Shown here: positions 9,082-45,406 of the stretch, in pieces
How the letters are laid out: every line of letters starts with the position of its first letter
How positions within the stretch are numbered: the stretch's first letter is position 1
Source of the DNA: a virus
Lineage: Duplodnaviria; Caudoviricetes
Strand: one strand, 5' to 3'
Virus record (IMG/VR): IMGVR_UViG_3300025502_000029
Coordinates: 1-50,871 of that record
DNA length: 50,871 nt
Notes under the pieces: generated by a model
What the model was told of the DNA's origin: nothing
What the model saw: the letters and a program-made list of their open reading frames with translations, nothing else
Database searches by the model: none
Made by a program: the position numbers and the translations under genes

Positions 9082-11661
9082 TTAGGTTGTTAGGTATTGG
9101 AAACTGGTATTTGCTACATATATAGCATCGTCTGTAATATAATCATCACCGATAATCAAATCTACTTCCGTTATTCTCCCCTGTGGTGTCGTAACAGTAA
9201 CATCAATTATATCTGTTTTAGTAAACTTTGTAAATAACTTCATTCCGGATGGATGTAATAGTTCTCTATATTCTTTTTCATAAACCTCTGGCGACACATC
9301 TGTATTTATTTCATATGAATAATCCTGGTAGAATAAACTATCCTGAATTACTTTATTGCCATTGATATTTGAAATAAAACTTACCCACTTACCTTCAGTT
9401 AATCCTTGGTCTCTGGATCTTGCAAATCCCACAGAATCTACCCTGCCTTCGTCAATGATAAATAAATCGGTATTTTCTTTAAACCATTCTGTGTTGATCA
9501 GCGGCGGTACAATTACATCATTCCACCTGGAAATAAATCTTACAGGTGCAGTTCCCGCCGCAATTTGCTCGAAGATTGCTGCATCGGCTGATGTGAATTT
9601 TCCAGTCTGATCGATGTCACCATATGAATATCCATCTAATGAAATCGATTTTAAGAATAGATCCAATTCTTCAGATTTACTAGGATCATCTGTTATAACC
9701 TTAAGAACCTCTTCAGTAAATGTGCCACCGTCTGATTGGGGTATTGGTACAACCGGATTTATATTGTCCCGAACTGCTTTTGTAAGATTGTAAATCTCTA
9801 CTGTCGATTCATCAGCATACCCGAAACCACTGTCAATGATATCAATTTCTTCAATTTTACCAGTAATGGTCTCTACTGTACCGTTTATTTTTGCATTTAA
9901 ACCTATAGGTAATGATTCAGTATCCTTTGAAATTGTCAATACAGTTATAGGATTCGGATTACCTAGTTTAAATATAGGCTCTGACAAGATAAATGATTCA
10001 AATGTCAATTGGGTAACATATAGGTTACTACCCTCAATTTTAACTACTCTACCCTTTACTTCAGTGTTTACAGTTCCGCCTACAAATGTTTCAATTGTTT
10101 TAAATTGTCTGATCTCATCACCTTCAAATAAAATTATGCCTGCTACTGGTATAATTCTAATGATTTGATCTCTAAGGTTAAATCTGCTTATGATGTTCTC
10201 CCGCGCGGAAACAAATGTATCGCTGAAGTAATCTATTCCAGGATTTATATTAGAAAGAGATGATATGACACCTAGTGTAAAATCTTCTGGTACGAAAGCT
10301 TCATTTAAAGCAGTAGTTAGTGAAGGTATAACACTGTTAACTCTAGTTCCGCTCATTTCTAGTAGTGCTGGTGGTACTGTGGAATAGTTTAATGAGTCTA
10401 AAGTAACATCAAGATAATTTCCAATACGATCCACAATTATAGAAATATCTTCTGTATCTCTTATAGTACCTATGTCAGCCGCTGCTGTATCATTTGCCTC
10501 AGTTATAAAAACTGGCTCTACCGAGATATTGTCTAATCTATCAATTGTTGCAATTTCAATACCACCCTCAAAGAAATATGTATTTGTCGAGTTTGCGGCT
10601 TCTGGGGTGGATAGATCTAATTTAAGACCTACTGATGTTGAATTTAAGCCTATTACAGATCCAGTTACTAGTGTGCCTTGGCTATTAGTTTGCTGCACTG
10701 TTTCACCTACTATAAACACTACGTCAGTATTCGCTGCTGCTGTTTCTGGGTCAGCAAAAAATAATGTCTGATTTGATAATTCAATAACTGTATTTGCTAA
10801 TGTATAGCCATATCCACCGGACACAATCTGGAAATCAATTTCACCTGATAGCTCCTGTGAAATTTTTGACACCCGACCTTTAGCTCCATAGCCAGTCGGT
10901 GAGCTGATATCTACAATATCACCTATTCTATTACTGCCAGAAACAAGAGCGGTATTGTCGATGTCCACACTTCTAAGGGAACCATATACTCTACCATATG
11001 TTACATCTGGATCTCTGCTGTAGATTATATCAAACCCACTGAAGCGACCGCGAACATCACTAATGAACAAAATAGGTATAGTTGATTTGTTTATCTTGAT
11101 AAAATATATATTATCAACAAAAGCTTCAGCCTGGCTTTTATCGCCGAATATTTTCTTATTTGCAATATCTTTAAATACGGCTTTATTATCTACCGCATAA
11201 AGTTGAATAAAGGTACCAACATTCCATTGTGATGAAGAAGGCTTGAATATATCTTCTGATGGGTAATATATCTCGACTTCAGTATCAAAGAATAATTTAA
11301 AGAATAACTCAATACCTTCCTTAGAGCCTTTTCTTCTATAAAGATCTAATATATTTTTTACTAGGAATCTAGTATCTTCTTCAAGAAAAAGACCATTCAT
11401 ATATTTGTTCTTGAAGAAGATTAACATTCTATCAAGTGTTGTATCTATGTTTCTGTAATCATATATTCTTCTAATATTATATGATGATTGGTTTGTTTGC
11501 GTCTCAAGGAACTCATAATAGGATTTTACGAGCTCAATTAGATCTCTGCCCTCTTCTCTGTATATTGCAGGAAATTGATTTTCTACAAAAAATGATGTTA
11601 TTTTTGATTCTGATAATGCATAATCTGCAAGTCTAACATCGTTTATATCTTCTATTATCAT
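9082..11661 (-). CDS. Baseplate wedge protein, gp7-like
   Basis: QFPAIYRE...YYEFLE, LYRRKGSKEGIELFFKLFF and IQDSLFYQDYSYEI...LLHPSGMKLF motifs; lies between gp6 and gp8. Confidence 0.7.
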   Translation of the reverse strand: MIIEDINDVRLADYALSESKITSFFVENQFPAIYREEGRDLIELVKSYYEFLETQTNQSSYNIRRIYDYRNIDTTLDRMLIFFKNKYMNGLFLEEDTRFLVKNILDLYRRKGSKEGIELFFKLFFDTEVEIYYPSEDIFKPSSSQWNVGTFIQLYAVDNKAVFKDIANKKIFGDKSQAEAFVDNIYFIKINKSTIPILFISDVRGRFSGFDIIYSRDPDVTYGRVYGSLRSVDIDNTALVSGSNRIGDIVDISSPTGYGAKGRVSKISQELSGEIDFQIVSGGYGYTLANTVIELSNQTLFFADPETAAANTDVVFIVGETVQQTNSQGTLVTGSVIGLNSTSVGLKLDLSTPEAANSTNTYFFEGGIEIATIDRLDNISVEPVFITEANDTAAADIGTIRDTEDISIIVDRIGNYLDVTLDSLNYSTVPPALLEMSGTRVNSVIPSLTTALNEAFVPEDFTLGVISSLSNINPGIDYFSDTFVSARENIISRFNLRDQIIRIIPVAGIILFEGDEIRQFKTIETFVGGTVNTEVKGRVVKIEGSNLYVTQLTFESFILSEPIFKLGNPNPITVLTISKDTESLPIGLNAKINGTVETITGKIEEIDIIDSGFGYADESTVEIYNLTKAVRDNINPVVPIPQSDGGTFTEEVLKVITDDPSKSEELDLFLKSISLDGYSYGDIDQTGKFTSADAAIFEQIAAGTAPVRFISRWNDVIVPPLINTEWFKENTDLFIIDEGRVDSVGFARSRDQGLTEGKWVSFISNINGNKVIQDSLFYQDYSYEINTDVSPEVYEKEYRELLHPSGMKLFTKFTKTDIIDVTVTTPQGRITEVDLIIGDDYITDDAIYVANTSFQYLTT

Positions 11662-30699: not shown

Positions 30700-31038
30700 T
30701 TAGTTCATGAAGACATCTATATTTACTTTGGTCGAAGTTTTATTAAACTTTTGCTTTACAGCTTCTTCTAGATCAATGCCGTAGCAACTAGCTAGTAGAT
30801 CAAGAGTTATAAGAACATCGCCCATTTCTTCCAGTAGGTTTTCGAGTAATTCTTCTTCTGTATTTTTATTCCCGATAATACCATTTCGAGCTCTATAGAG
30901 TTTCTTTACTGCATTTAGTAGTTCACCAGCTTCACCTGAGAATTCGACGGCCCTGAATAGCACATCTACTTTATCAGAACCTACCCAGTGCTTTTGCCGT
31001 TCTGCATTCTTTTCTCGCAGTTCACGTAGAATACTCAT
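30700..31038 (-). CDS. MazG-like nucleotide pyrophosphohydrolase
   Basis: GEAGELLNAVKK...EEMGDVL acidic motif. Confidence 0.85.
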   Translation of the reverse strand: MSILRELREKNAERQKHWVGSDKVDVLFRAVEFSGEAGELLNAVKKLYRARNGIIGNKNTEEELLENLLEEMGDVLITLDLLASCYGIDLEEAVKQKFNKTSTKVNIDVFMN

Positions 31039-31907
31039 GGTCTAATTCCTAACTTTTTCTTTTTGTAATTTTTTGGATTTGATTTTTTAGTCGAAGTAGG
31101 TGACGCACCTAGTTTTGCAATTGAGGACATATCACCCCTAAAGATATATGTACCTACATGGTTTAGTTTAATCCATGGGCACATATAAACTGAAAGACCA
31201 ATTTTTCGTGTATTCCAACAAAAGAAATAATCCTCTGATAGATATCGGCGAGTTTCAGGATCGATTCCGCAATCAAAATATGCCATAATATCCTTAGAGC
31301 CATCAAAGTGTGCAGTTCGTGCATGGTCGGGCTTGTAGTTTAGTTCAGGATAAGCATTTTCATATATGTTAAAAGTAGTTTGTGGAATTAGCATGAAACC
31401 AGTACCTGCCTCTGCAACTTCAACTGGTTCATCAATTCTAAATGAAGATCCACCTACTACAGGATTAAAAACAAAATCTGATGCATATGTGCTTAGTTGA
31501 AACGGATTATCAGTAATCTTCTTCTCTACTGCTGCCTGAATCTTTTCCCACGCAATTGTTTTCTTAGGATATGGGGCAGTTATCACATGATATTTGTCTG
31601 GGTAGCTTACTTGAATGCCGAGCATGGAAAGCACATCATTGGCATTAAAACCAATATCAGAATCAATGAACATTAAATGTGTGTAGTCAGAACGTAGGAA
31701 TTCATCGACGCAATAATTGCGCGCGCGGGTAATTAAGCTCTCATTAAAAAGATAATAGAAATTTACCCTAATACCATATTTAGCACACAGAGTAGCAAGA
31801 TCGGTAGTAGACTTTGCAAAAAGACCTGAACAATTCCCACCAAACATTGGTACTCCAACGAACAAAGAGTACTTCCTAAGTTCTTCTACGGTTATTTCTA
31901 ATTTCAT
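31035..31907 (-). CDS. GT-A fold glycosyltransferase-like protein
   Basis: ESLITRARN, THLMFIDSDI (DxD), GTGFMLI, YLSEDYFFC, LNHVG. Confidence 0.8.
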   Translation of the reverse strand: MKLEITVEELRKYSLFVGVPMFGGNCSGLFAKSTTDLATLCAKYGIRVNFYYLFNESLITRARNYCVDEFLRSDYTHLMFIDSDIGFNANDVLSMLGIQVSYPDKYHVITAPYPKKTIAWEKIQAAVEKKITDNPFQLSTYASDFVFNPVVGGSSFRIDEPVEVAEAGTGFMLIPQTTFNIYENAYPELNYKPDHARTAHFDGSKDIMAYFDCGIDPETRRYLSEDYFFCWNTRKIGLSVYMCPWIKLNHVGTYIFRGDMSSIAKLGASPTSTKKSNPKNYKKKKLGIRP

Positions 31908-32536
31908 CGAGTAATCATTTCCAAATCAGCCTCTGCTCGCAGGATTGCTTGTATTCTTAATATATCTGCTAGGATATCCCACGAACTGTCATGTAACTGA
32001 AACACTTGTTCCCAGAACTTTTCATCCTGAATAGGAATAAACGAGTTTACTTTAGGGAAGTCAAGTTTTGCATCAATAAATGTTCTTGTGTCTCGTACCT
32101 TCCAATGCGGCAGATACTCCTTTAAATGTAGTTCTTTCTGTTGCGACTCAAATAGTCTCCAAAGAATAGGAGGGTCAAATGAGTTCGAACGAGACCACCA
32201 ATAGTTAATCTTGCCAGCATCAGTTAGATATGATAGAAAATCCAAGGTAAACTCTGACACAGTTTTATCAGATTTCAGTGGTAAAATCTTCTTTTGAATC
32301 TCGGGCGGTTGATCCTGCCAGAATTGTATAGTGCTATCATATACCTTCCATTGATATTTGTCAACCTGTTCCTTAACGGAAAGTTTGGATTTTTGCATAT
32401 CGGCAATTGATCTTGTCGTATATGGGTTCGCTGAAATCATTTTATCAGTATCAAATACAAAATATGAGCAGTCAATAACTGCACAATCATATACATTAGT
32501 ACCGAAAGTTTCAAAGTCGATGATGGCATGGCGCAT
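31904..32536 (-). CDS. dexA: DexA-like 3'-5' exonuclease (DEDDh)
   Basis: IIDFETFG, WSRSNSFDPPIL, WKVRDTRT, HDSSWD. Confidence 0.75.
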   Translation of the reverse strand: MRHAIIDFETFGTNVYDCAVIDCSYFVFDTDKMISANPYTTRSIADMQKSKLSVKEQVDKYQWKVYDSTIQFWQDQPPEIQKKILPLKSDKTVSEFTLDFLSYLTDAGKINYWWSRSNSFDPPILWRLFESQQKELHLKEYLPHWKVRDTRTFIDAKLDFPKVNSFIPIQDEKFWEQVFQLHDSSWDILADILRIQAILRAEADLEMITR

Positions 32537-32549
32537 TTATTTAATTCCT

Positions 32550-33740
32550 TTATGTACCGAAGAATCGTTCAATATTATCTTCCTCAACTACAGTAGCATG
32601 CTTCGTAATAGCAGCCGCGAAGATAGTTTCTAGTTTATGTTTAAAGTTTATATCTGAATTCTGTGCATAAGCCCTATCGGCGAGATCTTGCCTATCTGTA
32701 ATAGTCAAGTTGCTAAATTCAGCAACAGCTTTGATGAACTCTTGCTTTGTTCTTACTACCCGTATGTACCGTTTTTTCATTACATCGTCGCACATCTCTA
32801 GTGCTGGATGATTGTTTCCCTTAGTACCAAAAACAATTAATGGCACACCTCGTACTAGCGATTCAAACGAAGTAATTGTAAATGTATCATAAGGTGCCAG
32901 CCCGACGAATGTACACAAAGAAGTAGAGATATGATTCATTATGACATCGTGTGGTTGATCAAAGAGTGTTACTCTAAGTGGGTCGGAAGCAAACTTAGCA
33001 AGATTTTTTTTACCATATTCTTTTATCTTTTCGTCTGATGAAAGATAAGCTGTCGTAGTAAATACTTCTGATTTATATTCAGTACCACTAAGAACTTCAT
33101 GTATACCAAATGTTTTCTTGCCGGGATTCATTGCTGACACGTGTCGGATAATATCATCCGATACCTTTGCAATATGCTTTTGCTCGGTATAGATACTATG
33201 CAGAACATCGTCAGCTTTTAACTCGTCAAAATCCCATTCAGATCTGGTCTTTGCATAATATTTTTCAAACTTTGTTTTATGAAAGTCTGAAACACATAGC
33301 GCATAAATTGATCTTCTAGTAAGTTTATAGAATAGATTTGCATTGTTCAGATCGGTAAAAAAACCTGGCATTGCATGATTTTGGTATATAATAGGCACAT
33401 CGACAATAGATGTGAGTTTAGAATATACCGAATTTACATCGTGATTTGAGAAGATTAGATCGGGCTTATACTTAATGATATCAGCATATAAAGACTCGAG
33501 TATTTCTTTCCTGCGAGTCTTATAATATGCTTTTACACCAGATGCTTCTAAATCTTTATTGTAAATAAAAACATTATGTTTAGTTTCATCTAAATTACTT
33601 GCTAGAGCAAATACGCGAGTATCATGCCCCATAGCAGAAACAAGTTTCATAGTACTCATCATAGAAACATCAATTCCACTATGGAACTTAGTTTCGGAAA
33701 GGTATGTTTTTAGGGTATATGGTATGAAATAAATTTTCAT
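32550..33740 (-). CDS. GT-B fold glycosyltransferase
   Basis: GHDTRVF, KPDLIF, DTFTITSFESLVRGVPLIV (GT4-like signature); ATGA overlap with the upstream gene. Confidence 0.7.
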   Translation of the reverse strand: MKIYFIPYTLKTYLSETKFHSGIDVSMMSTMKLVSAMGHDTRVFALASNLDETKHNVFIYNKDLEASGVKAYYKTRRKEILESLYADIIKYKPDLIFSNHDVNSVYSKLTSIVDVPIIYQNHAMPGFFTDLNNANLFYKLTRRSIYALCVSDFHKTKFEKYYAKTRSEWDFDELKADDVLHSIYTEQKHIAKVSDDIIRHVSAMNPGKKTFGIHEVLSGTEYKSEVFTTTAYLSSDEKIKEYGKKNLAKFASDPLRVTLFDQPHDVIMNHISTSLCTFVGLAPYDTFTITSFESLVRGVPLIVFGTKGNNHPALEMCDDVMKKRYIRVVRTKQEFIKAVAEFSNLTITDRQDLADRAYAQNSDINFKHKLETIFAAAITKHATVVEEDNIERFFGT

Positions 33741-34393
33741 TTTGATTTTAACCAAGCATCATATTGTTCACGCCATTCTGGATATTCGTCTTTCAGTAGG
33801 ACCCATTGCAGTTTAGTATCAGTATGTTCTGCCTTTTTATTCCAAATTACCCACATATAACTTATCATGCCGCCTATCTGTTCTTCCAAATTAACCGGCT
33901 CAATTTCTTTGCTACCAAAATTAACCCGATCCGATAAGATAATTATATCACTGGGTGGGTTATTTGTAAACAACTTATATCGTTTCATACCTTCCAAAAA
34001 TGTCAATCTGACAAAGAAAGCAACGTAGTCATATTCGGCAACAAACTTTTCAGCAAGTTTCCTAGGTAAGTCTTTATGATAAGGGGGGTTTGTGACAACG
34101 CCATCATAATCTTCTATTTTAGGAAGAAGCATTGCATCATAACTAGTTTTGATCGGAAGCAATGCTTCTTTATAATAGTTTAAATCTGAGCAATGTAATG
34201 TATGTCCGTTGCGTTCTAACTCTATAGCAATATTGCCAAAGCCAGCACAAGGCTCGACTATTTTCTTGGGTACTTTTGTGTATTTGCAAAGAATATAAGT
34301 AGCAAGAGGCGGGGTTCTATACAAATCATTTTTATTTCTATTAGGGTCAGATTGATCTACACCAGAATAGATATGCTTCAAGGTCTTTGTCAT
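33737..34393 (-). CDS. Amino-methyltransferase (N6-adenine/N4-cytosine DNA MTase-like)
   Basis: DLYRTP, EPCAGFG (motif I) and VTNPPY (motif IV). Confidence 0.85.
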   Translation of the reverse strand: MTKTLKHIYSGVDQSDPNRNKNDLYRTPPLATYILCKYTKVPKKIVEPCAGFGNIAIELERNGHTLHCSDLNYYKEALLPIKTSYDAMLLPKIEDYDGVVTNPPYHKDLPRKLAEKFVAEYDYVAFFVRLTFLEGMKRYKLFTNNPPSDIIILSDRVNFGSKEIEPVNLEEQIGGMISYMWVIWNKKAEHTDTKLQWVLLKDEYPEWREQYDAWLKSK

Positions 34394-34415
34394 AATATAT
34401 CCATCATAAAGAAAC

Positions 34416-34423
34416 TATTTATA
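34416..34423 (-). promoter_or_regulatory. Late promoter TATAAATA before the methyltransferase
   Basis: Exact consensus 23 nt upstream of the ATG at 34393. Confidence 0.65.
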
Positions 34424-34429
34424 TAGATC

Positions 34430-34675
34430 TTAGTCTAGTTTATCTGAGTTCATAAACGTAACTGAAATATCCCCTACCTCTGATAACATTGGTCTTGAGA
34501 TCTCATCCCACTTGATAGTCCATTTGGTATTGTGGGTATAAGGATCTGGTGAAACTACAACTCTTTTTATTCCAGATTGGATTATTGCTTTAGTACAATC
34601 TGGACATAGTGGCAGACCCAAAACATATATTGTCGAATCTTTAACTGATACACCACTACGAATCATATTTTTCAA
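34430..34675 (-). pseudogene. Orphan C-terminal half of a second dCMP deaminase
   Basis: GVSVKDSTIYVLGLPLCPDCTKAIIQSGIKRVV retains PxCxxC but has no HAE half and no good start. Confidence 0.75.
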
Positions 34676-35066
34676 TTTTCAACCCTAGCTTTCTTAGAAG
34701 TTTTATACCACTATCATCTCTATACTCTATATCATAATATACTTCTTTTATCCCAGCAACATAAATTTGCTTTGCACATTCGATACACGGAGAATGTGTT
34801 ACAAAAATTATGGCACCTTCCGAACTTTCATTAGATTTCGCAAGTTTTGCAATACAATTTGCTTCTGCATGCAATACTTCTATCTTAGTATTTCCATTTT
34901 CATCTTCACAGCTATTATCAAAACCTGATGGAGTCCCATTATAACCAATTGATAAAATTCTATCATCTTTTACTGCAATTGCACCAACTTTCAGTCTTTT
35001 TGCTTTTGATAATTCGGAAAATATATATGCAACTTTCATAAACGAAGCCTTAACCTCTTGTTTCAT
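34656..35066 (-). CDS. cd: dCMP deaminase
   Basis: VGAI, GYNGTP, HAEAN and SPCIECAK motifs. Confidence 0.93.
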   Translation of the reverse strand: MKQEVKASFMKVAYIFSELSKAKRLKVGAIAVKDDRILSIGYNGTPSGFDNSCEDENGNTKIEVLHAEANCIAKLAKSNESSEGAIIFVTHSPCIECAKQIYVAGIKEVYYDIEYRDDSGIKLLRKLGLKIEKYDS

Positions 35067-35161
35067 TTTTTAAGTCTACCCCTGACAAATGATTCTGGTA
35101 TTGTATCATCTTTGGGTATTTGTCTTTCAATTATATCAGTTATAAGTATAAGCTTGCTCAT
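35063..35161 (-). pseudogene. 32-codon chimeric remnant ending in a homing-endonuclease-like tail
   Basis: MSKLILITDIIERQIPKDDTIPESFVRGRLKK; the tail resembles the IPENEIPNDYIRGR repeat of the HNH at 39799-41004. Confidence 0.5.
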
Positions 35162-36013
35162 TTAGATATCATAATCAAATTTTACATTCATTTGCTTTTC
35201 GCGGTCAAGTGGCTCGCCATATGAGTTTCGATAGTCTTGATTGCGCCGGATTGTTTCCTCTAGTAATGTAAAATCCCTGTCCTGTCCTCGAGCAAACATA
35301 ACAAATGCAGCGGTATCTTTCACGAAGCAACTTCCACCGAAACCGGATCTTCCATCATGGCCTGGTACCATAGTATGTGAGGGTCCGATCCTTGGGTCAG
35401 TGCCTATGGCCTTTATAATGGTAGAATAATTGCTACCAAACTGTTCTACAATATCATGGAACTGGTTAAAGAATAGCACCTTCGAAGCAAGAAATGAATT
35501 CATACCATATTTTACAAAACTGGCTTCATCGGCCGTCATGTGATATACTGGGCAGGGTTTGCACGCACTATACTTCTCATAGATCTTTTCTAGTTCTTCA
35601 GTCCTAGCAGGCGACCCACCAAATACATGCATAATTGGATTTACAAAATCTTCATTTGCTGATTTTTCAGTAAGAAATTCTGGGTTGTAGATCACTCGGT
35701 CACTCTTTGCAAGTTCTTGTATGATGCTAGGTATAACGGTAGATTTTACTACCACGAGTCCTTCTGTGTGTAAAAGCAATTTTGAAATAGTATCAATTAA
35801 TATACTAGCATCAATACTTGCATCATTACCCATTGGAGTAGGAACACATACAAATGACACCTGTATACCAAGTCCAACTAGACTATCTACGGCGGTGCCA
35901 TATTTTGGATCAATGATAATTTTATCGCAATTGGTATCTGTAAAGCCATAATCAACCGCAGCCCCGACAAAGCCATGGCCGACAATCGCCATTTTCAATT
36001 TTTTCTTGCTCAT
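35162..36013 (-). CDS. UDP-glucose/GDP-mannose dehydrogenase family (short form)
   Basis: GHGFVG, CVPTP, VVKSTV, NPEFL, KYGMNSFLA, DPRIG and GFGGSCFVKD (catalytic Cys). Confidence 0.9.
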   Translation of the reverse strand: MSKKKLKMAIVGHGFVGAAVDYGFTDTNCDKIIIDPKYGTAVDSLVGLGIQVSFVCVPTPMGNDASIDASILIDTISKLLLHTEGLVVVKSTVIPSIIQELAKSDRVIYNPEFLTEKSANEDFVNPIMHVFGGSPARTEELEKIYEKYSACKPCPVYHMTADEASFVKYGMNSFLASKVLFFNQFHDIVEQFGSNYSTIIKAIGTDPRIGPSHTMVPGHDGRSGFGGSCFVKDTAAFVMFARGQDRDFTLLEETIRRNQDYRNSYGEPLDREKQMNVKFDYDI

Positions 36014-36876
36014 ATATTCCATCCGTTTTGTTTCAATATATTAATATAGTCGAATAATTCTCTAGTAGGTTCCCAACCCAGGGCTTTAGTCTTATTACTT
36101 ACCACTGGAGCTGACATTCGGTTACCTCTGCGTTCTGGTAGATGTTCGATTGGTTGCTCAAATAGCTCTGCAACTTGCTGAATAGTAAACCCTGATGGAT
36201 TACCGATGCCGTATTCATCACCGTGACCATTTTCACCGATTAGAACTAGAGCATCAACGATATCATCAATGTGTGTAAAATTGCGGGCTTGTGTCCCAGG
36301 AAGAACTACCGGTAAAGGCTTATTTTGTCTAGCCAATTCTTTGTATTTAGCAATAAGTGTAGCATATTTTCCATCACTTATTTCACGTCCACCATATACA
36401 TTATAGAAATATGTTATAGCATAATCAAACCCATACCACTCAGCATATTGTTTTACTAACTCAGTATTTGATGCCTTTGACCAAGTATAGGGGCTTTGTA
36501 CATAACCTGGGGTATGATCTGCATATTTAGTCGATGAACCAGCATAAATTAATTTAGACTTATTTTTCTGCACATATTTTAGTACTTCATATGTGCCAAG
36601 TTTATTGTATTGCCATACCAAGTTAATATCATCGAAGCTTTGTTCTACTCGTGAATATTCACCTAAATGAAATATAATATCGAACCGTATAGTTCTAAAA
36701 ATATTATTAATCAATTCAGTAGACCCAGAAATATAGTTCACGCCTGGTACATGATTTCTTGTACTTCCAGTAAAATAATTATCCAATGATGTTACCGAAT
36801 GACCCATTGAATATAGACGCTCACAAAGGTGGCTGCCAACAAAGCCGGCGCCACCAGTTACGAGTATTTTACTCAT
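36010..36876 (-). CDS. NAD-dependent nucleotide-sugar epimerase/dehydratase
   Basis: MSKILVTGGAGFVGSHL, YTWSK (YxxxK), YNVYG, RNFTHIDD. Confidence 0.92.
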   Translation of the reverse strand: MSKILVTGGAGFVGSHLCERLYSMGHSVTSLDNYFTGSTRNHVPGVNYISGSTELINNIFRTIRFDIIFHLGEYSRVEQSFDDINLVWQYNKLGTYEVLKYVQKNKSKLIYAGSSTKYADHTPGYVQSPYTWSKASNTELVKQYAEWYGFDYAITYFYNVYGGREISDGKYATLIAKYKELARQNKPLPVVLPGTQARNFTHIDDIVDALVLIGENGHGDEYGIGNPSGFTIQQVAELFEQPIEHLPERRGNRMSAPVVSNKTKALGWEPTRELFDYINILKQNGWNI

Positions 36877-38086
36877 GAATATTATTCCTTCCTTCTGGAT
36901 AATGTTTGATCTGAAACTCTGGAATTTCCTTTTGTTCAGGTGTATCAAAGTTAGCTACCAATTTCATGCCATAATTATTTACATCATGTACAATATCAAC
37001 GTCTTTTTTAAGAATGGGTACATTTTGTCTAGCCGGTTGGCCGGTGTGTTTATTTACAATCTTATCTAGATTTACAAAGTGATGTATTCTACCATATCGT
37101 TCCATCAATTCAACACAGTCTGGGTGCATTTCGTAGAGCATCTGTGATTTACGCATTGCAGAATCGTCGGAATAATTATTATAGATTTCGGCGGTGTTGC
37201 CGCCTTTAACTGAACCAGTCTTAAGTTTACCACACAAGCCAAAATAGAATAACATTGTGCACATGCCTTCTTTTAGAGCACGAATTGAAAGATCTACGTC
37301 TTCGTTATATTTGCCCCGCCAACGGATATCAATATCATTATCAATCAAGAAGCATGACATGATACGAGTGTTTAGAATATAAGGAGGGTAGTCACATTTA
37401 TCAACAGCAAAGAATTTATATTGTAGCCCCGCGAGTGCTATATTCTCAAACCGATCAACAAAATCTTCAGTAGAACTAAAAAGGCTACCGCCCTCGTCAA
37501 CTCTATATCGCTTATTTCTGTGAAGCCTCCAGAACTCTGACATATTATCATCCATTAGCCAGTGGCGCTTAAAGCCATTTGCTCTAGAGTGTTCCCAGCA
37601 CCAGTTACGAGCAGGACCTGATCCTTTACCGTGGTTGCTGAATGGTAGTTTCAACACCTTTGCTGGGTCAATGACAGCACAGTAGTTGTCATATTCTTGG
37701 GGCTCTACTGCAATATAGTATGGCACACCCATATTTTCTAGCGCTCTAGAGGTGTGGCGTGTTTCCCAGCGACCTTTGGAAATGATGTAAATAGGGTATC
37801 TTGGCAGATATTGATCTTTTTTGTCCTCAAGAATATATCGCTTAGACATGTTCTTTTCACGCTCTCTTACTGGAAACCAAACTGAATTGGTTCGGTCAGT
37901 AAGGCTTAAATTAAGCTTATCAGAAAACTCTTGTCGTGCCGCCTTTGTGCGAAATTTTATATCTAATTGTCTGCCCTCTTTTTGTTCCTTCTGTGAGAAA
38001 CCTGGCATACCCGCAGCATACCATTGAGCATATGGATCGCGCCACATGTTCTGTAATTCTTCTACTGTATCAATTGTAGTTAGCAT
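36869..38086 (-). CDS. GREB1/TAGT/JGT-like glycosyltransferase with N-terminal accessory domain
   Basis: YPIYIISKGR, RNWCWEH, WLMDDN, RIMSCFLI, WRGKYNEDVDLSIRAL, KGGNT; N-terminal GMPGFSQ...TNSVWFP domain. Confidence 0.75.
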   Translation of the reverse strand: MLTTIDTVEELQNMWRDPYAQWYAAGMPGFSQKEQKEGRQLDIKFRTKAARQEFSDKLNLSLTDRTNSVWFPVREREKNMSKRYILEDKKDQYLPRYPIYIISKGRWETRHTSRALENMGVPYYIAVEPQEYDNYCAVIDPAKVLKLPFSNHGKGSGPARNWCWEHSRANGFKRHWLMDDNMSEFWRLHRNKRYRVDEGGSLFSSTEDFVDRFENIALAGLQYKFFAVDKCDYPPYILNTRIMSCFLIDNDIDIRWRGKYNEDVDLSIRALKEGMCTMLFYFGLCGKLKTGSVKGGNTAEIYNNYSDDSAMRKSQMLYEMHPDCVELMERYGRIHHFVNLDKIVNKHTGQPARQNVPILKKDVDIVHDVNNYGMKLVANFDTPEQKEIPEFQIKHYPEGRNNIHE

Positions 38087-38090
38087 ATGT

Positions 38091-38414
38091 TTAATCACCC
38101 ATAAAGTTAAAGATACCACTGTTACTGTTATCGTTTTCTGTTTCATATATTATAGTTTTTGTTTTAGGAGACACGACGATACCAGATTGTTTGACGAATT
38201 CCTTGACATCTTCCTCAGTATCAAAGCTCATGAAAAGGCTTTGCCATTCCTCTGGAAACTCAGGGTCAACATTTTTAGGTTTTACAGATGGCTTGTATTC
38301 TTCAGGAACATCACCGAGAAAATCCCCTAGTGAGTTCTTGGAAAGATTATCTGCGGAAACGTATCCGACAAAATCTTCGTATTCTTCTGACGTATCAATT
38401 TCGTAATTCTTCAT
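38091..38414 (-). CDS. Acidic protein resembling the N-terminal domain of the adjacent glycosyltransferase
   Basis: FDTEEDVKEFVKQSGIVVSPKTKTIIY aligns by eye with FRTKAARQEFSDKLNLSLTDRTNSVWF. Confidence 0.7.
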   Translation of the reverse strand: MKNYEIDTSEEYEDFVGYVSADNLSKNSLGDFLGDVPEEYKPSVKPKNVDPEFPEEWQSLFMSFDTEEDVKEFVKQSGIVVSPKTKTIIYETENDNSNSGIFNFMGD

Positions 38415-38425
38415 GTAATATATCC

Positions 38426-38454
38426 TTTATATACCGATTTTCTCTATATGTCAA
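38426..38454 (-). promoter_or_regulatory. Sigma70-type promoter heading the glycosyltransferase cluster
   Basis: TTGACA-17 nt-TATAAA with AATCGGTA immediately before the -10. Confidence 0.7.
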
Positions 38455-39449
38455 CTAAAGAAATCCTCAAGTGTATCAATTTTCTTTGATGACCAGTTAA
38501 GTGCGTCTAGGATGTTTTCGAGTGGTTTAACGAAAACCTTTTCAAACTGCAACTCATGATCAATATATTTGTCAAGTCCAAGTTCCTTTGGTAGGAAGCC
38601 AGGGAATGAAATAATATTTTCCATCAAAGGATTTGGTGTTTTCAGATAAACAAACTTTACCTTATCACCTGACTGAATTAACTCGTATTTCTTATTGAGA
38701 CCTTTTTCTTTCATCATTTTATTGTATAGAATTGCACCACGTACGTGTATTGGACAACCTTTGAGATAAGATCCTGTTCTATCAGTATATTTAGCAATAT
38801 CATCAGTACCAGAAACTTTACCAACCTGCTCTGGCGCCAAAGTAACAAATCGCTGTCTAAAGTCTTCAATAAAAGCCTGTGCTGTTTTTTCGTCCGAATT
38901 AAGAATAATACCAAAGGATTCCTTCAGCGCATCCCTGCATACTTCAGGTGTTGATGATCTAACCGATTCAATACCAGTGACTGAAATCTTGGGTGTTTCA
39001 TAATGAACACCTTCCGAGTTTAAAACACTCATAATATAGCGCTTTTTAGCAACGAATAACGTTCTGTCGGTTATCTTTTCACGTTTCATTGACATTGCGT
39101 TTCTATATGCACCCATATAGTTAGCTAATTCTTCATAGCCATGCTGAATTGCCTTTTCAATCTTTTCCTTACAGACACTATCAATAAAGTCTTCACCGGC
39201 TTTTCGATCAATATCGGCACTGCCGAAAACCTTTACAATCAGTGGCTCAAGATTAACATAAGCGGAGTCTGTATCGCAGTAATAAACATAGTCAATGTCG
39301 TCTGTTTTTAAAACTTTATTAAGATATCCGTTAATTGACTTCTCAGCATATCTGATTGAAAGCTGACCTGATGTAGTAATTGCTTCTGCCATTTCTGCAA
39401 TATAGTATAGGAAGTAACGGTTCGCGACGGCGCCGTATAAACTATTCAT
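38451..39449 (-). CDS. 43: DNA polymerase gp43B, exon 2
   Basis: MNSLYGA, AITTSGQ, YCDTDS (motif C), KKRY, GIESVRSSTP; C-terminal clamp-binding TLEDFF. Confidence 0.93.
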   Translation of the reverse strand: MNSLYGAVANRYFLYYIAEMAEAITTSGQLSIRYAEKSINGYLNKVLKTDDIDYVYYCDTDSAYVNLEPLIVKVFGSADIDRKAGEDFIDSVCKEKIEKAIQHGYEELANYMGAYRNAMSMKREKITDRTLFVAKKRYIMSVLNSEGVHYETPKISVTGIESVRSSTPEVCRDALKESFGIILNSDEKTAQAFIEDFRQRFVTLAPEQVGKVSGTDDIAKYTDRTGSYLKGCPIHVRGAILYNKMMKEKGLNKKYELIQSGDKVKFVYLKTPNPLMENIISFPGFLPKELGLDKYIDHELQFEKVFVKPLENILDALNWSSKKIDTLEDFFS

Positions 39450-39697
39450 CTTTTTGTTACGACAGTCGCAAACTGTCTCCAGCATTTCTACTGGTATCGG
39501 ACTATATCATCATCTTTATAAAGATGTTCCGCGCTTCGAGTTACCATTAGCTTGTAACCCTACTCCATATAGGATAGTCTCTGAACCTTCCCTTTCGGGC
39601 TTGGATGCTGATTGGCATATGATCTATAATCACTTAGCTTTCCAGCAGTTCACGGAATTTTCGACACGGGTCACCCCGTGAAGCCTCATGAATGTTT
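39450..39697 (-). ncRNA. ORF-less group I self-splicing intron (248 nt)
   Basis: Exon ends CCUU pairing with GAGG (P1, U-G at the splice site); AUUCAU pairs with 3' exon AUGAAU (P10); P3 UUCCGUG/CGCGGAA; P4 UGCUGG/UCAGCA; CAGAGACUA and GAUAUAGUCC (P7); terminal G; removal restores KIL|MNSLYG in frame. Confidence 0.93.
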
Positions 39698-39811
39698 AAG
39701 GATTTTTATTGACATCTGTTTATTGTGCAGGCGTGTTGATATCTGTTTTTTATTTTCGATAAGTTCCTCTAGTTCTTCCAATGTTAAGTCTTCCAATGTT
39801 AAGTCTTCCAA
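39698..39811 (-). CDS. 43: DNA polymerase gp43B, exon 1 (38 codons)
   Basis: TTG start; LEDLTLEDLTLEELEELIENKKQISTRLHNKQMSIKIL supplies the Q...K of motif B; an in-frame TAA lies 6 codons upstream. Confidence 0.85.
39774..39811 (-). repeat. 15-nt tandem repeat TTGGAAGACTTAACA, about 2.5 copies
   Basis: Directly visible; spans the HNH stop codon and the gp43B start. Confidence 0.9.
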
Positions 39812-41004
39812 TATATTTCTTTCCCTTTATGTTTTTTAAGATCAAAGTCCGTGAGTTTATAGAAAAATATACCCAAATCATTTAGAGTTTTGCCTTGATT
39901 TTTCTTTCTGAATTCGTTTATCTCATTTTTACAGTTAAAGTGAGGTTTTTTGATTATCATATGGTTCAGTGCATTTAATGTATTATTACCTCTTTCTATG
40001 GTTATATAATAACCGTTGCCATGTAAAAAGTCAACTAAGATTTTTATGTTTGTAAAGATCTTATCATTAAAAACTGCAACTACAGTTTTTTCAGTACTTC
40101 TACCAGATTCAGGCCCGTGCCGGGTTTTATCTATTACGGTAGTTTTTGTTGCTTTTTGCTCTATTATATCTACAACACCCATCATTGCGTTTGCCTTGTC
40201 AATTCCCGGGTTATTTTCTAAGATCCTACCTCTGATATAATCATTTGGTATTTCATTTTCAGGTATACGTATTTGATGTTTTGTTTTTGGGTTGTAACAC
40301 CATATACTATTCGAAAAATACTCTGAGATCTTTTGATTGGGACCACCTCCAATACGAAAGCCATCCGGTATAGAATCAACATCTTCTACATATTTTATAG
40401 TATTGGTTTCTTCATTATAACAGCATATTTTTCCCGGTCTTCCAATCTTTAACTTAGTTTCTTCGCTATGTTTATAACCGGTCCTATAAAATAAATGTAT
40501 TTCTGGGTCATATTTTTCATCATCTTTGTTGATCCTAAAGCAGTTACGATCAGTGTCATTACAATCGAATACTATAATTGTGTTTTCTGTTCTTTTACCT
40601 ATTGCATCTCTTACATCTTTAGTTCTTTTTCTTCCTTTATTAGATTTGCCTATGATGGAAGAAACATCTTCCCTAAGTTCTTCATATAATCTACTTGTTA
40701 CTGTGACACCTCCGAAGTTTCTCATCATATTCAAGGCAAATGTCATAGAAACATTCCTATAAACTTTCCATAGAATAAGATGTGCTATAAAGTGTTGTCT
40801 CTCCGTGAGCAATATTTTATTCCAAGGATTTTTCCTGAAACATTCATATTCCTTGAACATTTCTGCGGCTCTTGGACAAATATGATGCCCAATATTTCTA
40901 TCGGCATCATTACTTTCTCTACAGTGCTCTATAAACTTTATATATCTTTCTAATTGTCTTTTATCGTGTGGTTTACTTTCTAGTATTTCTTTATAAACAA
41001 CCAT
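39799..41004 (-). mobile_element. Free-standing HNH homing endonuclease (MobE-like, with NUMOD3-type repeats)
   Basis: HHICPR...NKILLTERQHFIAHLILWK; KGRKRTKDVRDAIG and GYKHSEETKLKIG; IPDGFRIG and IPNDYIRGR repeats; likely start ATG 41004. Confidence 0.88.
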
Positions 41005-41010
41005 GTGTTT

Positions 41011-41062
41011 CCCTATTATGTATAGTAGAATAGTATTTATATACAATAGAACCATAATAGGA
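41011..41062 (-). promoter_or_regulatory. RBS-sequestering hairpin with a late promoter (41034-41041) in its loop
   Basis: UCCUAUUAUG...CAUAAUAGGG stem covers the AGGG SD; TATAAATA lies between the arms. Confidence 0.8.
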
Positions 41063-41067
41063 GTTTA

Positions 41068-42564
41068 TTATAACATTTTTTTTCTTCTTTGTATTTCTTT
41101 TTTTATCTCTTCGATTTCAGATTCAACTCGCAACATTTCCTTTTTGATTACTGAACGATTTGCATAATATTCTTGAATGATCTCTGGGATGATACCAAGT
41201 TTCTTATTAGTAAAATGTACACCATTTGCGCAAACTGAATAATCTTTATCATCGTTTTGATACTCGTCATTAAGAACCATGTCCTGTGAAACATATGCAC
41301 GCTTATCCGCAACAAATGTTTCAGGTGACATATTATATTGTAACATTAGGTGTGGATACAAACTGTTAAGGTCAAACGAGACTACCCAGCGATGAACACC
41401 TGTGACTGGATCCTTTACATATCCACCTACCAATTCCCCTAGTTTGTCACCAGGACTACTTTTAACTGGTGGGATTAGTGACTTTTCCATAAGCTTACGA
41501 TATAATGTTGCTTCCCAGATACCAACAGTACCAAACGCATCAGAATAGTTCACACCGCCGCCATATGCAACAGTAAGCACAAGTGCCAGCAAAGCGGTTT
41601 CTTCTTCCATACGTTGAATGAGATGCGTATCCACAAGATTATAATCAAGATACAGTTGTGGATTTTTGTTATACAATTCAGTGAGTGAGCCATATTGTGA
41701 ATAGTCAAGTTTCTTAGTACCTAACACTGTATGCGCGATATGATCAAGTTTATATGATTCCTGAGTGCCATATTTATAGCCAAACTTTTTAAAGGCATCC
41801 ATATAGTCAATAATAGTTACACCGGAGATATTATATGTTGATTGTTTACGGTTAAAGATCTCTCTGCTTGTCTGTCGGATATTACCCCAAGGCGATAATT
41901 CTCTAGCCTTGGCTTCACCGAAGAGACGTATGATACGAGTTACAATATATTGAATATCAAAATATTCTACATTCCAACCAGTGACAATATCTGGATAATC
42001 ATTTTTCCAAATTTGCATAAATCTACTCAATAGTTGTAATTCAGTATCAAACTTCATAAATTGAATATTATCTGGATCAATACCTGACAGAGTTATAGTT
42101 TTATCATAATCCTTGCGACCTAATAGATGATATGTATCTGATTTTGATGATTTGATTGCAATAGAAGTAATTTCATTATCGGCTGTTTCCATATTTGGAA
42201 GTTTTTCTGAAATATCAACCTCAATGTCGAAGTTAAAGATATTAATCTGGCTCATATCAAAGTCAATATGCCCAGGATATTGTTCCTGTATGAACTGTGT
42301 AACATAATTAGAGGTACCGTAAATTTCAAGCCCATGAACGTCTTTATACCGCTCAACAAAGTCCTTGGCATCGTTCATACTATCAAATTTTTTGGGAGCT
42401 AGATATCTTTCACCGAGCAATGACTTGAAATTAGTCTCTTGTTTTGCATATTGATAAAGTGTAGGCTCAAATGTTATCTTTTTAGAGAAGCGACGACCAT
42501 TATCATAACCTCTCCATAATATGTTACTACCATAGCGTTCGACTGATGTGTAGAATTTAGACAT
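41068..42564 (-). CDS. 43: DNA polymerase gp43A (exonuclease domain and motif A)
   Basis: FDIEV, TGWNVEYFD, YNLVD, GGYV, SFDLNSLYP; stops in the fingers helix; ATG 42564 with AAGGA RBS. Confidence 0.95.
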   Translation of the reverse strand: MSKFYTSVERYGSNILWRGYDNGRRFSKKITFEPTLYQYAKQETNFKSLLGERYLAPKKFDSMNDAKDFVERYKDVHGLEIYGTSNYVTQFIQEQYPGHIDFDMSQINIFNFDIEVDISEKLPNMETADNEITSIAIKSSKSDTYHLLGRKDYDKTITLSGIDPDNIQFMKFDTELQLLSRFMQIWKNDYPDIVTGWNVEYFDIQYIVTRIIRLFGEAKARELSPWGNIRQTSREIFNRKQSTYNISGVTIIDYMDAFKKFGYKYGTQESYKLDHIAHTVLGTKKLDYSQYGSLTELYNKNPQLYLDYNLVDTHLIQRMEEETALLALVLTVAYGGGVNYSDAFGTVGIWEATLYRKLMEKSLIPPVKSSPGDKLGELVGGYVKDPVTGVHRWVVSFDLNSLYPHLMLQYNMSPETFVADKRAYVSQDMVLNDEYQNDDKDYSVCANGVHFTNKKLGIIPEIIQEYYANRSVIKKEMLRVESEIEEIKKEIQRRKKML

Positions 42565-42632: not shown

Positions 42633-44345
42633 TTATGCCACCAACTGAGTAAAATTCTTGACTTTTTCAAATCGTATGTGATTGTCAAATTTTTCACCAA
42701 AGGTTTCACCGCGGTGACTAATGACGAAAATGTTATCAGTGGCATGTGTCTTATGGAGAATATCGATCAGAGCCTCAACTCCCGCAGAATCTGAAGCGGA
42801 ATCTAAAGTTTCGTCCATTATTAATAAATTAGTTGATACTGAGTTCCTGAGCTTTGCAATTGCTCTCCATGTAAACATAATACTCAAACTTATGCGCATC
42901 TTCTCACCTTCAGAGAACGAAGCAAACGAGAACGCATCTCTAAATCTACTCTTAATAGTTTCATTAAAATTCTCATCAAGGTTAAAGTCAACGAAAAGTT
43001 CAAACTCAGAAAGATACTGATTTATAAGTTTATTCATAATTGGTATGTATGTTCTAATGATACTAGTCTTAATTCCGCCATCCTTAAGCATAGAAGCAAC
43101 AATACCCAGAGTTTCTCTTTTTTCGTATAACTCAGTTTGTTCGATTTGTTTTTCCGATAAATGTTTATTAAACTCTAGTATTTTACTTTGATCAATTTCT
43201 TCTACCTCTTTTTCGGCACCTTCTAGTTCTTTTTTATATACCTTTAATTGATTCATAATTATCTTAACCTGTAGACGGTGTTCATTTGCCTTATTATGAA
43301 ATTTCTGAATTTCATCTTCTATATTTGATATCTCAGAAAGTCTAGTTTCTACCTCTAGTTTCTTCTGGGATAATTGTTCTAGACCAGTATGTATCTCCGA
43401 GGATTTGAGATTACGCTCGGTTACTATTTCAGACTTAAACTCATGATCAATACCTTGCTTACATGTCGGGCAATTATCATGCTTAGAATAAAAGTCAATT
43501 TCCTTTTTATATTCTCGCTCTTTTGTTTCCAATTCCAAAAGAAGAGTTTTTACTTTTTCATGAAGTTGCTTTTGTTTCTGTTTATCATTTATAGTGGAAC
43601 TTAGTTCTGTTATCTGCGCTTCAAACATTTCAGTATGAGATTGCTCTGTTTCAATTTCAACTAGATTTTTTGATATTTTTGACTTAATCTTTTCTACTTC
43701 TGTTTGTTTCATTCGTTGAATTTCTTCATTATGATCTTTAGCAGAATCTATTTTGGTCTGAACCAAATCAATCTGGTAATTATTTTCAGTTATAAGTGCT
43801 TTATTTTCACTGATTCGTTCCTTAAGCAAAGTATTCATCGTGCTAAATACTTGTATGTCCAATAGATCTTCAATGATTTCTCTGCGTTGTCCAGTTGGTA
43901 GTTCCATAAAAGGAACATATGTAGCACTACCAAGAATTACAATCTGCGAGAACGATTTAAAACTCATCTTAAGAATATTTTGTTCTAGATAAAGTTGATA
44001 ATCTTTAGATGCTGCATCTTTATTTAAGAGATCATTGTTCTTCCAAATCTCAAAAATTCCTGGCTTCATACCGCGACGAATCATATACTTATCCGAGCCA
44101 ATTGTAAAATCAAGTTCTACTAATAGTTCCTTACCATTAACGCTATTTACTAACTGTGGCTTGTTGATCCTACGGAACGGTTTATTGAATAATGCAAAAA
44201 CAATTGCCTCAATAAATGTTGACTTGCCCGCACCATTTGATCCTGATGTAAGTGATGTTTTATACTTGTCAAGTTCTAATTCAATAAAATTATTACCTAC
44301 TGACATAATATTTTTATATCGTACTTTAGTAAATTGTATGTGCAT
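42633..44345 (-). CDS. 46: Recombination endonuclease subunit gp46 (Rad50/SbcC-like)
   Basis: GSNGAGKST, CPTC zinc hook, FSEGEK, LLIMDE, VISH. Confidence 0.96.
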   Translation of the reverse strand: MHIQFTKVRYKNIMSVGNNFIELELDKYKTSLTSGSNGAGKSTFIEAIVFALFNKPFRRINKPQLVNSVNGKELLVELDFTIGSDKYMIRRGMKPGIFEIWKNNDLLNKDAASKDYQLYLEQNILKMSFKSFSQIVILGSATYVPFMELPTGQRREIIEDLLDIQVFSTMNTLLKERISENKALITENNYQIDLVQTKIDSAKDHNEEIQRMKQTEVEKIKSKISKNLVEIETEQSHTEMFEAQITELSSTINDKQKQKQLHEKVKTLLLELETKEREYKKEIDFYSKHDNCPTCKQGIDHEFKSEIVTERNLKSSEIHTGLEQLSQKKLEVETRLSEISNIEDEIQKFHNKANEHRLQVKIIMNQLKVYKKELEGAEKEVEEIDQSKILEFNKHLSEKQIEQTELYEKRETLGIVASMLKDGGIKTSIIRTYIPIMNKLINQYLSEFELFVDFNLDENFNETIKSRFRDAFSFASFSEGEKMRISLSIMFTWRAIAKLRNSVSTNLLIMDETLDSASDSAGVEALIDILHKTHATDNIFVISHRGETFGEKFDNHIRFEKVKNFTQLVA

Positions 44346-45406
44346 TAAAGATTCATTGCCTCTATATAAAGTTCGTCAACTACACTCTTAATTCGTTTTT
44401 TATCTATATTAGTTTCTACGGAGTCTATGTATGAATGAAGTATATCTTTGGTATCTTTTGCTTCTTCCATCAATTCATCAAGGCCTGCGCCTGAAAGGTT
44501 CAATGTATCTTCTACAGATTTAATATCAGCTGCGCCGCATTCATTCAAGCGGTTGAGAAACATATCATACAAGTAAGGATTTGATCGGTTCTTTACAAGA
44601 ACCTTGATGTAACAGTCCTTTAGCATAGAAGTATCTAATGCAGCTATATCATCAATAGCTAGATCCGTATCATCATAGTCGATCTTATGATATATCCTAT
44701 CACTGTTTTCAACGAATGTCAACTCTCTTGTTTCAGTATCTAATACATGAAACCCCTTCTTACAAGCATAGTCTGACCAGTTCATCTCGTACTGCGCACC
44801 AAGATACTTGACATTTCCATACTGGGATTGATGGTGGTAATGGCCGGAATATACAGCTTCAAAGTGATCAAACTGCTTATAATCAAAGCCATGGTCACTT
44901 ACTACACCTTTCATCATTTCAAAGCCCTTGAGATCAAAATGACCACATAGTATATGAGCAGTTGATTTTTTTATTTTAGTAAGAGCAACTTCAGTTGTTT
45001 CTTTTACTAACCATGGGCACATCATAATTCTAGTAGTACCGAATTCAAGCTCGACTGGCTCGTTTTCGTAAACTTGAATATTATCATATTCTTTTAGTAG
45101 CAGTGAAACCGAGTTTACTTCGTTTGATGTAGTCCAGAAAGTATCGTGATTGCCTAAGATTGCATGCATCTGAATATTTTGCTCTTTTAGAACATCAAAA
45201 AAGAATTCACGGGAACGTTTTAATGTATAGAAATTGATATACTTTCTACGATCAAAAATATCACCCAGATGAAGCACTGTATCAATTTTATGTTCTTCAA
45301 GATAAGGAAAAAATTGATTTGTAAAAAAATTATCTTGATGCTGTAGAAATATTTTTGAGTCGCTGCGGGCACCTAGGTGTGAATCGCAAAGTAGTGCTAT
45401 TTTCAT
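44345..45406 (-). CDS. 47: Recombination endonuclease subunit gp47 (Mre11/SbcD-like)
   Basis: DSHLG, LGDIFD, GNHD, SGHYH. Confidence 0.96.
   Translation of the reverse strand: MKIALLCDSHLGARSDSKIFLQHQDNFFTNQFFPYLEEHKIDTVLHLGDIFDRRKYINFYTLKRSREFFFDVLKEQNIQMHAILGNHDTFWTTSNEVNSVSLLLKEYDNIQVYENEPVELEFGTTRIMMCPWLVKETTEVALTKIKKSTAHILCGHFDLKGFEMMKGVVSDHGFDYKQFDHFEAVYSGHYHHQSQYGNVKYLGAQYEMNWSDYACKKGFHVLDTETRELTFVENSDRIYHKIDYDDTDLAIDDIAALDTSMLKDCYIKVLVKNRSNPYLYDMFLNRLNECGAADIKSVEDTLNLSGAGLDELMEEAKDTKDILHSYIDSVETNIDKKRIKSVVDELYIEAMNL

Follow-up and report, generated by a model that had tools for sequence, protein, structure and literature searches.

A T4-type phage DNA polymerase gene divided by a free-standing HNH gene and a predicted group I intron

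How could a phage obtain a working DNA polymerase from a gene that is interrupted twice? The question is raised by gene 43 of the IMG/VR record IMGVR_UViG_3300025502_000029 (Duplodnaviria; Caudoviricetes), of which positions 1 to 50,871 were analyzed; this whole stretch of 50,871 nucleotides (nt) is called the window. Its minus strand carries, in order, gp46, the polymerase part 43A, a 63-nt spacer, an open reading frame (ORF) for an HNH protein, 43B exon 1, an intron, and 43B exon 2. The initial annotation had placed the 43A stop at 41068 within the fingers and, after it, the HNH gene, a 38-codon exon (39811-39698), a 248-nt intron, and exon 2, and all of these coordinates hold. Judged by homology and motif content, 43A and 43B together make up a T4-type family B DNA polymerase, with the division at the fingers tip.

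The polymerase halves and the intron in motif B

43A matched PHROG 262 and 2062 (E < 1e-140; the latter is a 502-column family) and Pfam DNA_pol_B_exo1, and it aligned to residues 1-502 of gp43 in the T4-type structures PDB 9e5y and 1clq. Exon 2 matched PHROG 262 and 1918. Between them, the two halves retain intact exonuclease motifs along with motifs A and C, and the C-terminal tail is present. The nearest cultured-phage match to exon 2 was only 52%, and no close cultured phage was found.

As no RNA family was found between 43A and exon 1, the first break is a genuine division of the gene. The search gave no Rfam match at E ≤ 1 within 39700-41400, which led us to reject a further intron or other RNA family between the two halves. 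The second break, in contrast, matched the group I model RF00028 with 88.3 bits (threshold 50; E = 2.7e-21), the sole Rfam match in the window, in agreement with the intron proposed by the initial annotation. In P1, a G pairs with the U that closes the exon; the last base of the intron is likewise G. P7 has the canonical form, and pairing between the 5' end of the intron and the initial bases of exon 2 makes up P10. Group IA2 is the subclass defined by P7.1 and P7.2, and both form here between P7 and P3. Compared with the intron of a related locus, L100, there were two compensatory pairs in P7.2 and five among the 68 predicted pairs as a whole.

Among the open, in-frame U/G joins listed, splicing at the predicted site gives K-I-L/M-N-S-L-Y-G, that is, K-x-x-x-N-S-x-Y-G with the spacing of uninterrupted relatives, so the junction that was expected to rebuild motif B would do so. 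All seven related introns have U at -1, a terminal G, a P1 helix, and an invariant P7, and their removal restores K-x-x-x-N-S-x-[YF]-G; P10 is weak in two of them (L308 and L326). Intron matches in the phage collection covered 66% at best. The intron is predicted to be self-splicing. An active enzyme would need both RNA splicing and the assembly of two subunits, as had been suggested, and the homologues support this. Gene callers miss exon 1, which makes 43B seem to lack the motif B lysine.

The locus is not a misassembly, which the initial annotation had named as grounds for refutation. Three IMG/VR contigs (L001-L003) show the same arrangement, Logan contigs from sequencing runs X1 and X8, both near-identical and either of them a possible source, hold the whole stretch in one piece, and a Logan contig from run X16 is gapless over 38300-42094, with 35 letters differing from the window. 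The stretch was present in 20 of the 23 listed runs, seven of them flagged as possible sources, and the run label is salt lake metagenome; none of the 23 is listed as an RNA run, which has no bearing on expression. Exon 1 begins with 15 nt that belong to a tandem duplication (39782-39811, at the HNH stop and 43B start) in the window, L001, and L003, which adds five codons and a spare TTG; L002 lacks it, and its exon 1 has 33 codons. The feature is real and probably functional.

Table 1. Features of the divided gene 43 locus in the window
Feature	Position	Strand	Description
43A	41068..42564	(-)	498 amino acids; ATG 42564, TAA 41070-41068; N-terminal, exonuclease, and palm motif A parts, ending at the fingers tip
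43A basic amphipathic C-terminal extension	41071..41112	(-)	candidate assembly tail; net charge +3
Motif B DNA look-alike	41030..41077	(-)	spans the 43A stop, the spacer, and the late promoter; possible operator or target mimic for the endonuclease
Predicted late promoter TATAAATA	41034..41041	(-)	sequence match upstream of HNH start
Possible RNA hairpin	41011..41062	(-)	may cover the ribosome-binding site of HNH in part, in long transcripts; weak
Free-standing HNH homing-endonuclease gene	39799..41004	(-)	401 amino acids; last codons contain the likely 43B ribosome-binding site and start
43B exon 1	39698..39811	(-)	38 codons, begun by a TTG that overlaps the HNH stop; acidic head rich in Leu, then fingers helix to the motif B Lys
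ORF-less group I intron	39450..39697	(-)	248 nt; IA2-like with P7.1/P7.2; within motif B
43B exon 2	38451..39449	(-)	332 amino acids; remaining motif B, motif C, thumb, clamp-binding-like C-terminal tail; motif B codons recoded

Split alleles, their new ends, and signs of movement

The fetched loci included a redundant set of 209 that matched 43A at 60% or more; 189 of these genes were continuous, 19 were split, and one was cut at the edge. Counted as distinct sequences at all identities, there were 119 continuous and five split types (the window type, L100, L042, L166, and L123). L100 shares 75% identity with the window in 43A, 48% in the HNH protein, and 89% in the intron, which is at the same site; its 43B has an ATG start at the HNH stop, the same place as the start of exon 1 in the window. 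The HNH gene of L042 and L166 is of the same family, and L123 has an EDxHD/Vsr-like nuclease, as classified by motif; these three have no intron. In an approximately unbiased (AU) test on 29 rows picked out of a quick tree of 58, a single clade of the close clade's four split alleles was rejected (p = 0.0067), and a clade of the window with L100 was not (p = 0.58). The first of these results means that the split arose or disappeared on more than one occasion.

A search with an alignment of 16 HNH proteins revealed 77 new loci, 15 of them with a polymerase or intron match, and Rfam introns were found in five of the ten loci tested. The intron occupied the window's site in L326 and L308, a position 10 nt downstream in L278 and L291/L313, and one 22 nt downstream in Aeromonas phage 25. 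Wherever the HNH match reached at least residue 326, the locus consisted of a 43A-like ORF, the HNH gene, and a motif B group I intron (6/6 loci with five distinct sequences: L100/L164, L278, L291, L313, L308, and L326), and the polymerases at these loci were 25-75% identical. Most partial HNH matches sit in other contexts.

The split alleles gain helix-like extensions, I..IK.E...R on 43A and L(S/T)..EL..L on 43B, and uninterrupted relatives have a short loop where the 43A extension sits. The 43A pattern was present in four of the five aligned split alleles and had diverged in L100. In phage Aeh1, NrdA-a and NrdA-b have tails of opposite charge that are required for activity (PMC3045599). The initial annotation had proposed that a basic tail and an acidic head zip the two subunits together. 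By analogy with Aeh1 this is plausible for the window, but a strong charge contrast was found in only two of the five alleles: the net charges of tail and head are +3/-9 in the window, +5/-6 in L100, +2/-3 in L123, +1/+1 in L042, and 0/-1 in L166. A pure charge zipper was thus rejected as a general rule. What the compared split alleles have in common is the hydrophobic pattern.

The X16 variant differs from the window by four letters at 39261-39270 and 20 at 41139-41377, with none listed within 39271-41138 (at most two of 26 are unlisted); L195 has the same upstream patch of differences. Run X16 also holds an uninterrupted gp43 relative, with the joint at 39417/41140. The pattern fits homing with different tract lengths, and ordinary recombination could also yield it.

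Several of the related loci have features of their own. L123 (6488-7540), whose split gp43 falls among continuous alleles, has a spacer with a look-alike of motif B (K-I-V-M-N-S-L). L100 (5001-10771) has the same cassette and a split intein in 43B, with the N-part at 8537-8836 (TIGR01445), the C-part at 10073-10171 (TIGR01443), and an ORF of 398 amino acids between them. Its polymerase, in four coding pieces, would depend on splicing of the RNA, trans-splicing of the protein, and non-covalent subunit assembly. In L042 (1-3972), a 43B split intein lies in motif C with a Vsr/EDxHD-like ORF between its parts. L291 (4967-5506) and L313 are distant polB loci with 43A, HNH, and intron, followed by an intein N-part that stops right after motif C; their contigs end soon after. 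Fractured genes with split inteins have been covered elsewhere (PMC2677866). In a close relative (L280, 3489-4535, on the contig of L007), a related HNH gene, with 39% identity over the N-terminal 165 residues, lies on the other strand about 4 kb from a continuous, intron-free gp43.

Compared over 43650-45406, L001-L003 are ~85% identical to the window across gp47 and part of gp46, and nearly 100% identical from about 43650 downward, which is a sharp recombination border or a chimeric join. Downstream of the polymerase, 31035-38414 presumably holds a sugar/DNA-modification cluster (glycosyltransferases, epimerase, UDP-sugar dehydrogenase, dCMP deaminase, and methylase), as judged from motifs only.

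The HNH gene and the motif B look-alike

The HNH protein matched PHROG 655 (E = 1e-25) and PHROG 12434, 'HNH endonuclease', and had no match to Pfam HNH, NCBIfam, or PDB sequences. H40, H41, N62, H71, and H75 were invariant in 16/16 aligned homologues, in an N-terminal domain with the HH...N...H...H metal-finger pattern. The likely start is ATG 41004, which is preferred over the alternative at 41055 because close homologues start there. Upstream of it, at 41041-41034, is TATAAATA, which we take to be the T4 late-promoter consensus and which occurs 13 times in exact form across the window.

To score DNA for likeness to motif B, a profile was built from 90 distinct alleles, including two intron-free split alleles that were both removed for the allele-by-allele comparison, leaving 88 foreign ones. 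On this profile, 41077-41030 ranked second among about 101,600 positions. Its score was 8.2 bits; the true site had 23.9, and the minus-strand position ranked after it had -5.6. Not one of 300 shuffles scored as high, and the other 12 late-promoter regions of the window were all below -32. The look-alike corresponds to the intron site and the codons 3' of it. It agreed with foreign alleles at 20-26 of 39 nt and with the phage's own exon 2 at 17, below 88/88 of the foreign values. Exon 2 itself agreed with the motif B consensus at 25 of 39 nt, equal to the lowest value among the 88 (L100: 22), and its motif B uses TAC and GGC, which are rare in the gene (8/57 Tyr and 9/48 Gly codons). A look-alike of foreign alleles together with a recoded exon is what a homing-site mimic with donor immunity predicts, and motif B is likely the target of the HNH protein; base composition at third positions may contribute. 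This suggests collaborative homing, with the nuclease gene and the intron spreading together.

The overlap of a homing-site-like sequence with the late-promoter match resembles an operator of the I-TevI type. I-TevI, encoded in the T4 td intron, binds an operator over its own late promoter that resembles its homing site (PMC2988022). That enzyme is an intron-encoded GIY-YIG endonuclease with demonstrated binding, whereas the present candidate is free-standing, of the HNH type, and predicted from sequence.

Taken as a whole, the locus could work as follows. One transcript would span 43A, HNH, and 43B, and the intron, whose structure is recognizable, would splice itself out and rebuild motif B. 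43A and 43B would be translated separately, the latter from its TTG with a ribosome-binding site in the last HNH codons, as the arrangement in L100 indicates. The halves would reassemble through two fingers helices extended by the new amphipathic ends, as phage 25 and Aeh1 lead us to expect. The HNH protein, likely made late from the TATAAATA promoter, would nick or cut uninterrupted alleles in their motif B DNA, either at the intron site or immediately 3' of it, and repair would copy the 43A tail, the HNH gene, the 43B head, and the intron as a single block. The intron and the recoded motif B codons would protect the donor, and the look-alike over the promoter would likely serve as a binding site for self-repression, by analogy with the I-TevI operator. 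We consider this combination of a split and spliced polymerase, HNH homing at motif B, donor protection, and a mimic operator to be the probable explanation of the locus.

Competing explanations and known systems

A number of observations weigh against parts of this explanation. TTG is a weak start for 43B, a subunit needed in equal amounts. The mimic was clear in the window and L100 only (p = 0.003-0.007; 10 spacers tested), and in L100 it corresponds to the 3' half of motif B; it was partial in L123, L042, and L308, and in L326, L278, L313, L287, and phage 25 the full-profile mimic was not above shuffles. The mimics of L042 and L123 showed no preference for foreign over own alleles. The hairpin at the HNH ribosome-binding site (-11.9 kcal/mol, z = -0.54) was no better than shuffles, its counterpart in L042 having z = -6.0, and even the late transcript has some predicted pairing. 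The X16 pattern comes from one contig with two or three recombinant patches, and the uniform-null P of 3e-8 overstates it. Protein identity between the window and L100 has no broad peak around the cassette, and the two are closer only in the 12 residues before the intron (11/12, vs. 8-10 in four uninterrupted relatives). Finally, the same HNH family splits gp43 without an intron in L042, L166, and L287, so the intron is not required.

These intron-free splits also speak for a reading in which the gene is split and spliced, the HNH gene and the intron arrived independently, and the look-alike is a worn duplication relic of the cassette insertion. The look-alike is patchy across loci, and it lies directly after the fingers tip in gene order, where one would expect a displaced fragment of motif B. 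A fresh duplication should, however, match its own allele best, and the look-alike matches that allele least and is out of frame with 43A; a relic that predates the recoding would still fit, and motif B would still be marked as the target. Independent arrival is also countered by the presence of a motif B intron beside full-length members of the HNH family at 6/6 loci. On balance, we regard this reading as unlikely, and far less so than two others. A dead gene or an artefact of assembly is very improbable as an account of the locus: the 15-nt duplication varies between assemblies, and the record is about 26% complete, so that a second polymerase is possible, but the arrangement recurs in three IMG/VR contigs and the diverged X16 contig, all catalytic motifs are intact, and a separate phage with a 43A of 75% identity (L100) has the same layout with compensatory intron changes. 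Removal of the whole 43A-43B insert at the RNA level, or its bypass by the ribosome, would yield one continuous polymerase, and both the bypass of T4 gene 60 and intron-borne HNH genes are known as precedents. Against this are the lack of an Rfam match at E ≤ 1 in the insert, the 63-nt spacer and the HNH overlap with the 43B start, which leave no space for a ribozyme core, the own 43B ATG starts of L100, L042, L123, and L166, and a gap of about 1.26 kb. This last possibility is the most remote of those considered.

Co-purification and activity of split gp43 halves were reportedly shown with phage 44RR. PMC2988022 describes seg43(25) of phage 25 and states that the split gp43 halves co-purify and are active. 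Intron 25.g43B has no endonuclease of its own and, by prediction, relies on the free-standing enzyme; phage JSE is named in the same article as having an intron in gene 43 (PMC2993671). The RefSeq record of phage 25 (NC_008208) lists 43A, a homing endonuclease, and a 43B 'split by group IA2 intron'. The initial annotation knew of no description of the combination of splicing and two-subunit assembly, and in this it was wrong, as phage 25 has such a layout (RefSeq NC_008208; PMC2988022, PMC2993671). Both loci have a split at the fingers tip, a free-standing endonuclease between the halves, an ORF-less motif B intron in 43B, a 43B start directly at the nuclease stop, and an L(S/T)xxEL head on 43B. 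They differ in the nuclease, which is HNH here and a segD-like GIY-YIG (seg43) in phage 25, and in the intron site, which lies 22 nt further upstream here and in the Leu codon after NSLYGA in phage 25. The introns are 49% identical over aligned columns and the polymerases 33-35% identical, and the late-promoter match has a target mimic here, with no mimic detected in phage 25. In its layout, the locus works like gene 43 of phage 25, built from different elements in an unrelated lineage.

Other systems share single traits with this one. Fingers-split gp43A/B had been said to occur in Acinetobacter phages, and a 43A/43B split was found in Lazarusvirus (NC_049493 and NC_049511), where a related HNH gene (27-29% identity over residues 6-224) lies between 43A and 43B; there it is on the opposite strand, the gap holds five more small ORFs, and 43B has no intron. 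The nrdA-a/mobE/nrdA-b arrangement of Aeh1, cited by the initial annotation for mobE splitting nrdA, is documented as an HNH gene within an essential gene (PMC3045599) and likewise has a basic C-tail and an acidic N-tail on the new ends. It involves another host gene and no intron, and tail function has been demonstrated there, whereas the tails are candidates here. An ORF-less intron beside a nuclease that probably targets the intron site is also known from the cyanophage psbA intron with its free-standing endonuclease and from T4 mobE with the nrdB intron. In the present case, unlike these, the nuclease also splits the host gene, and the cleavage site is deduced from the mimic. Trans and collaborative homing have been defined (PMC2790892 and PMC3984707), and the distance between the HNH gene and the intron is well inside their co-conversion range of ~2 kb.

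It is possible, and we suggest it tentatively, that a single self-regulating mobile module consists of the HNH gene, the mimic operator, the two clasp peptides, and the intron without an ORF, that it turns intact polB genes into enzymes dependent on splicing and on two subunits, and that it has moved among polymerases 25-75% identical and at least two motif B intron sites, with a split intein added in L100. No description of such a module or of a free-standing HNH operator was found in the literature searched, with the primary phage 25 paper outside its coverage. The architecture is not new; the present instance is independent and widespread and has a concrete predicted nuclease target. What sets it apart from phage 25 is the motif B look-alike over the HNH late-promoter match, the HNH family, and the intron position. 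The locus is a compact test system for self-repression of an HNH endonuclease through a target mimic, for joint homing of intron and nuclease at motif B, and for the assembly of a split polymerase by short terminal helices.

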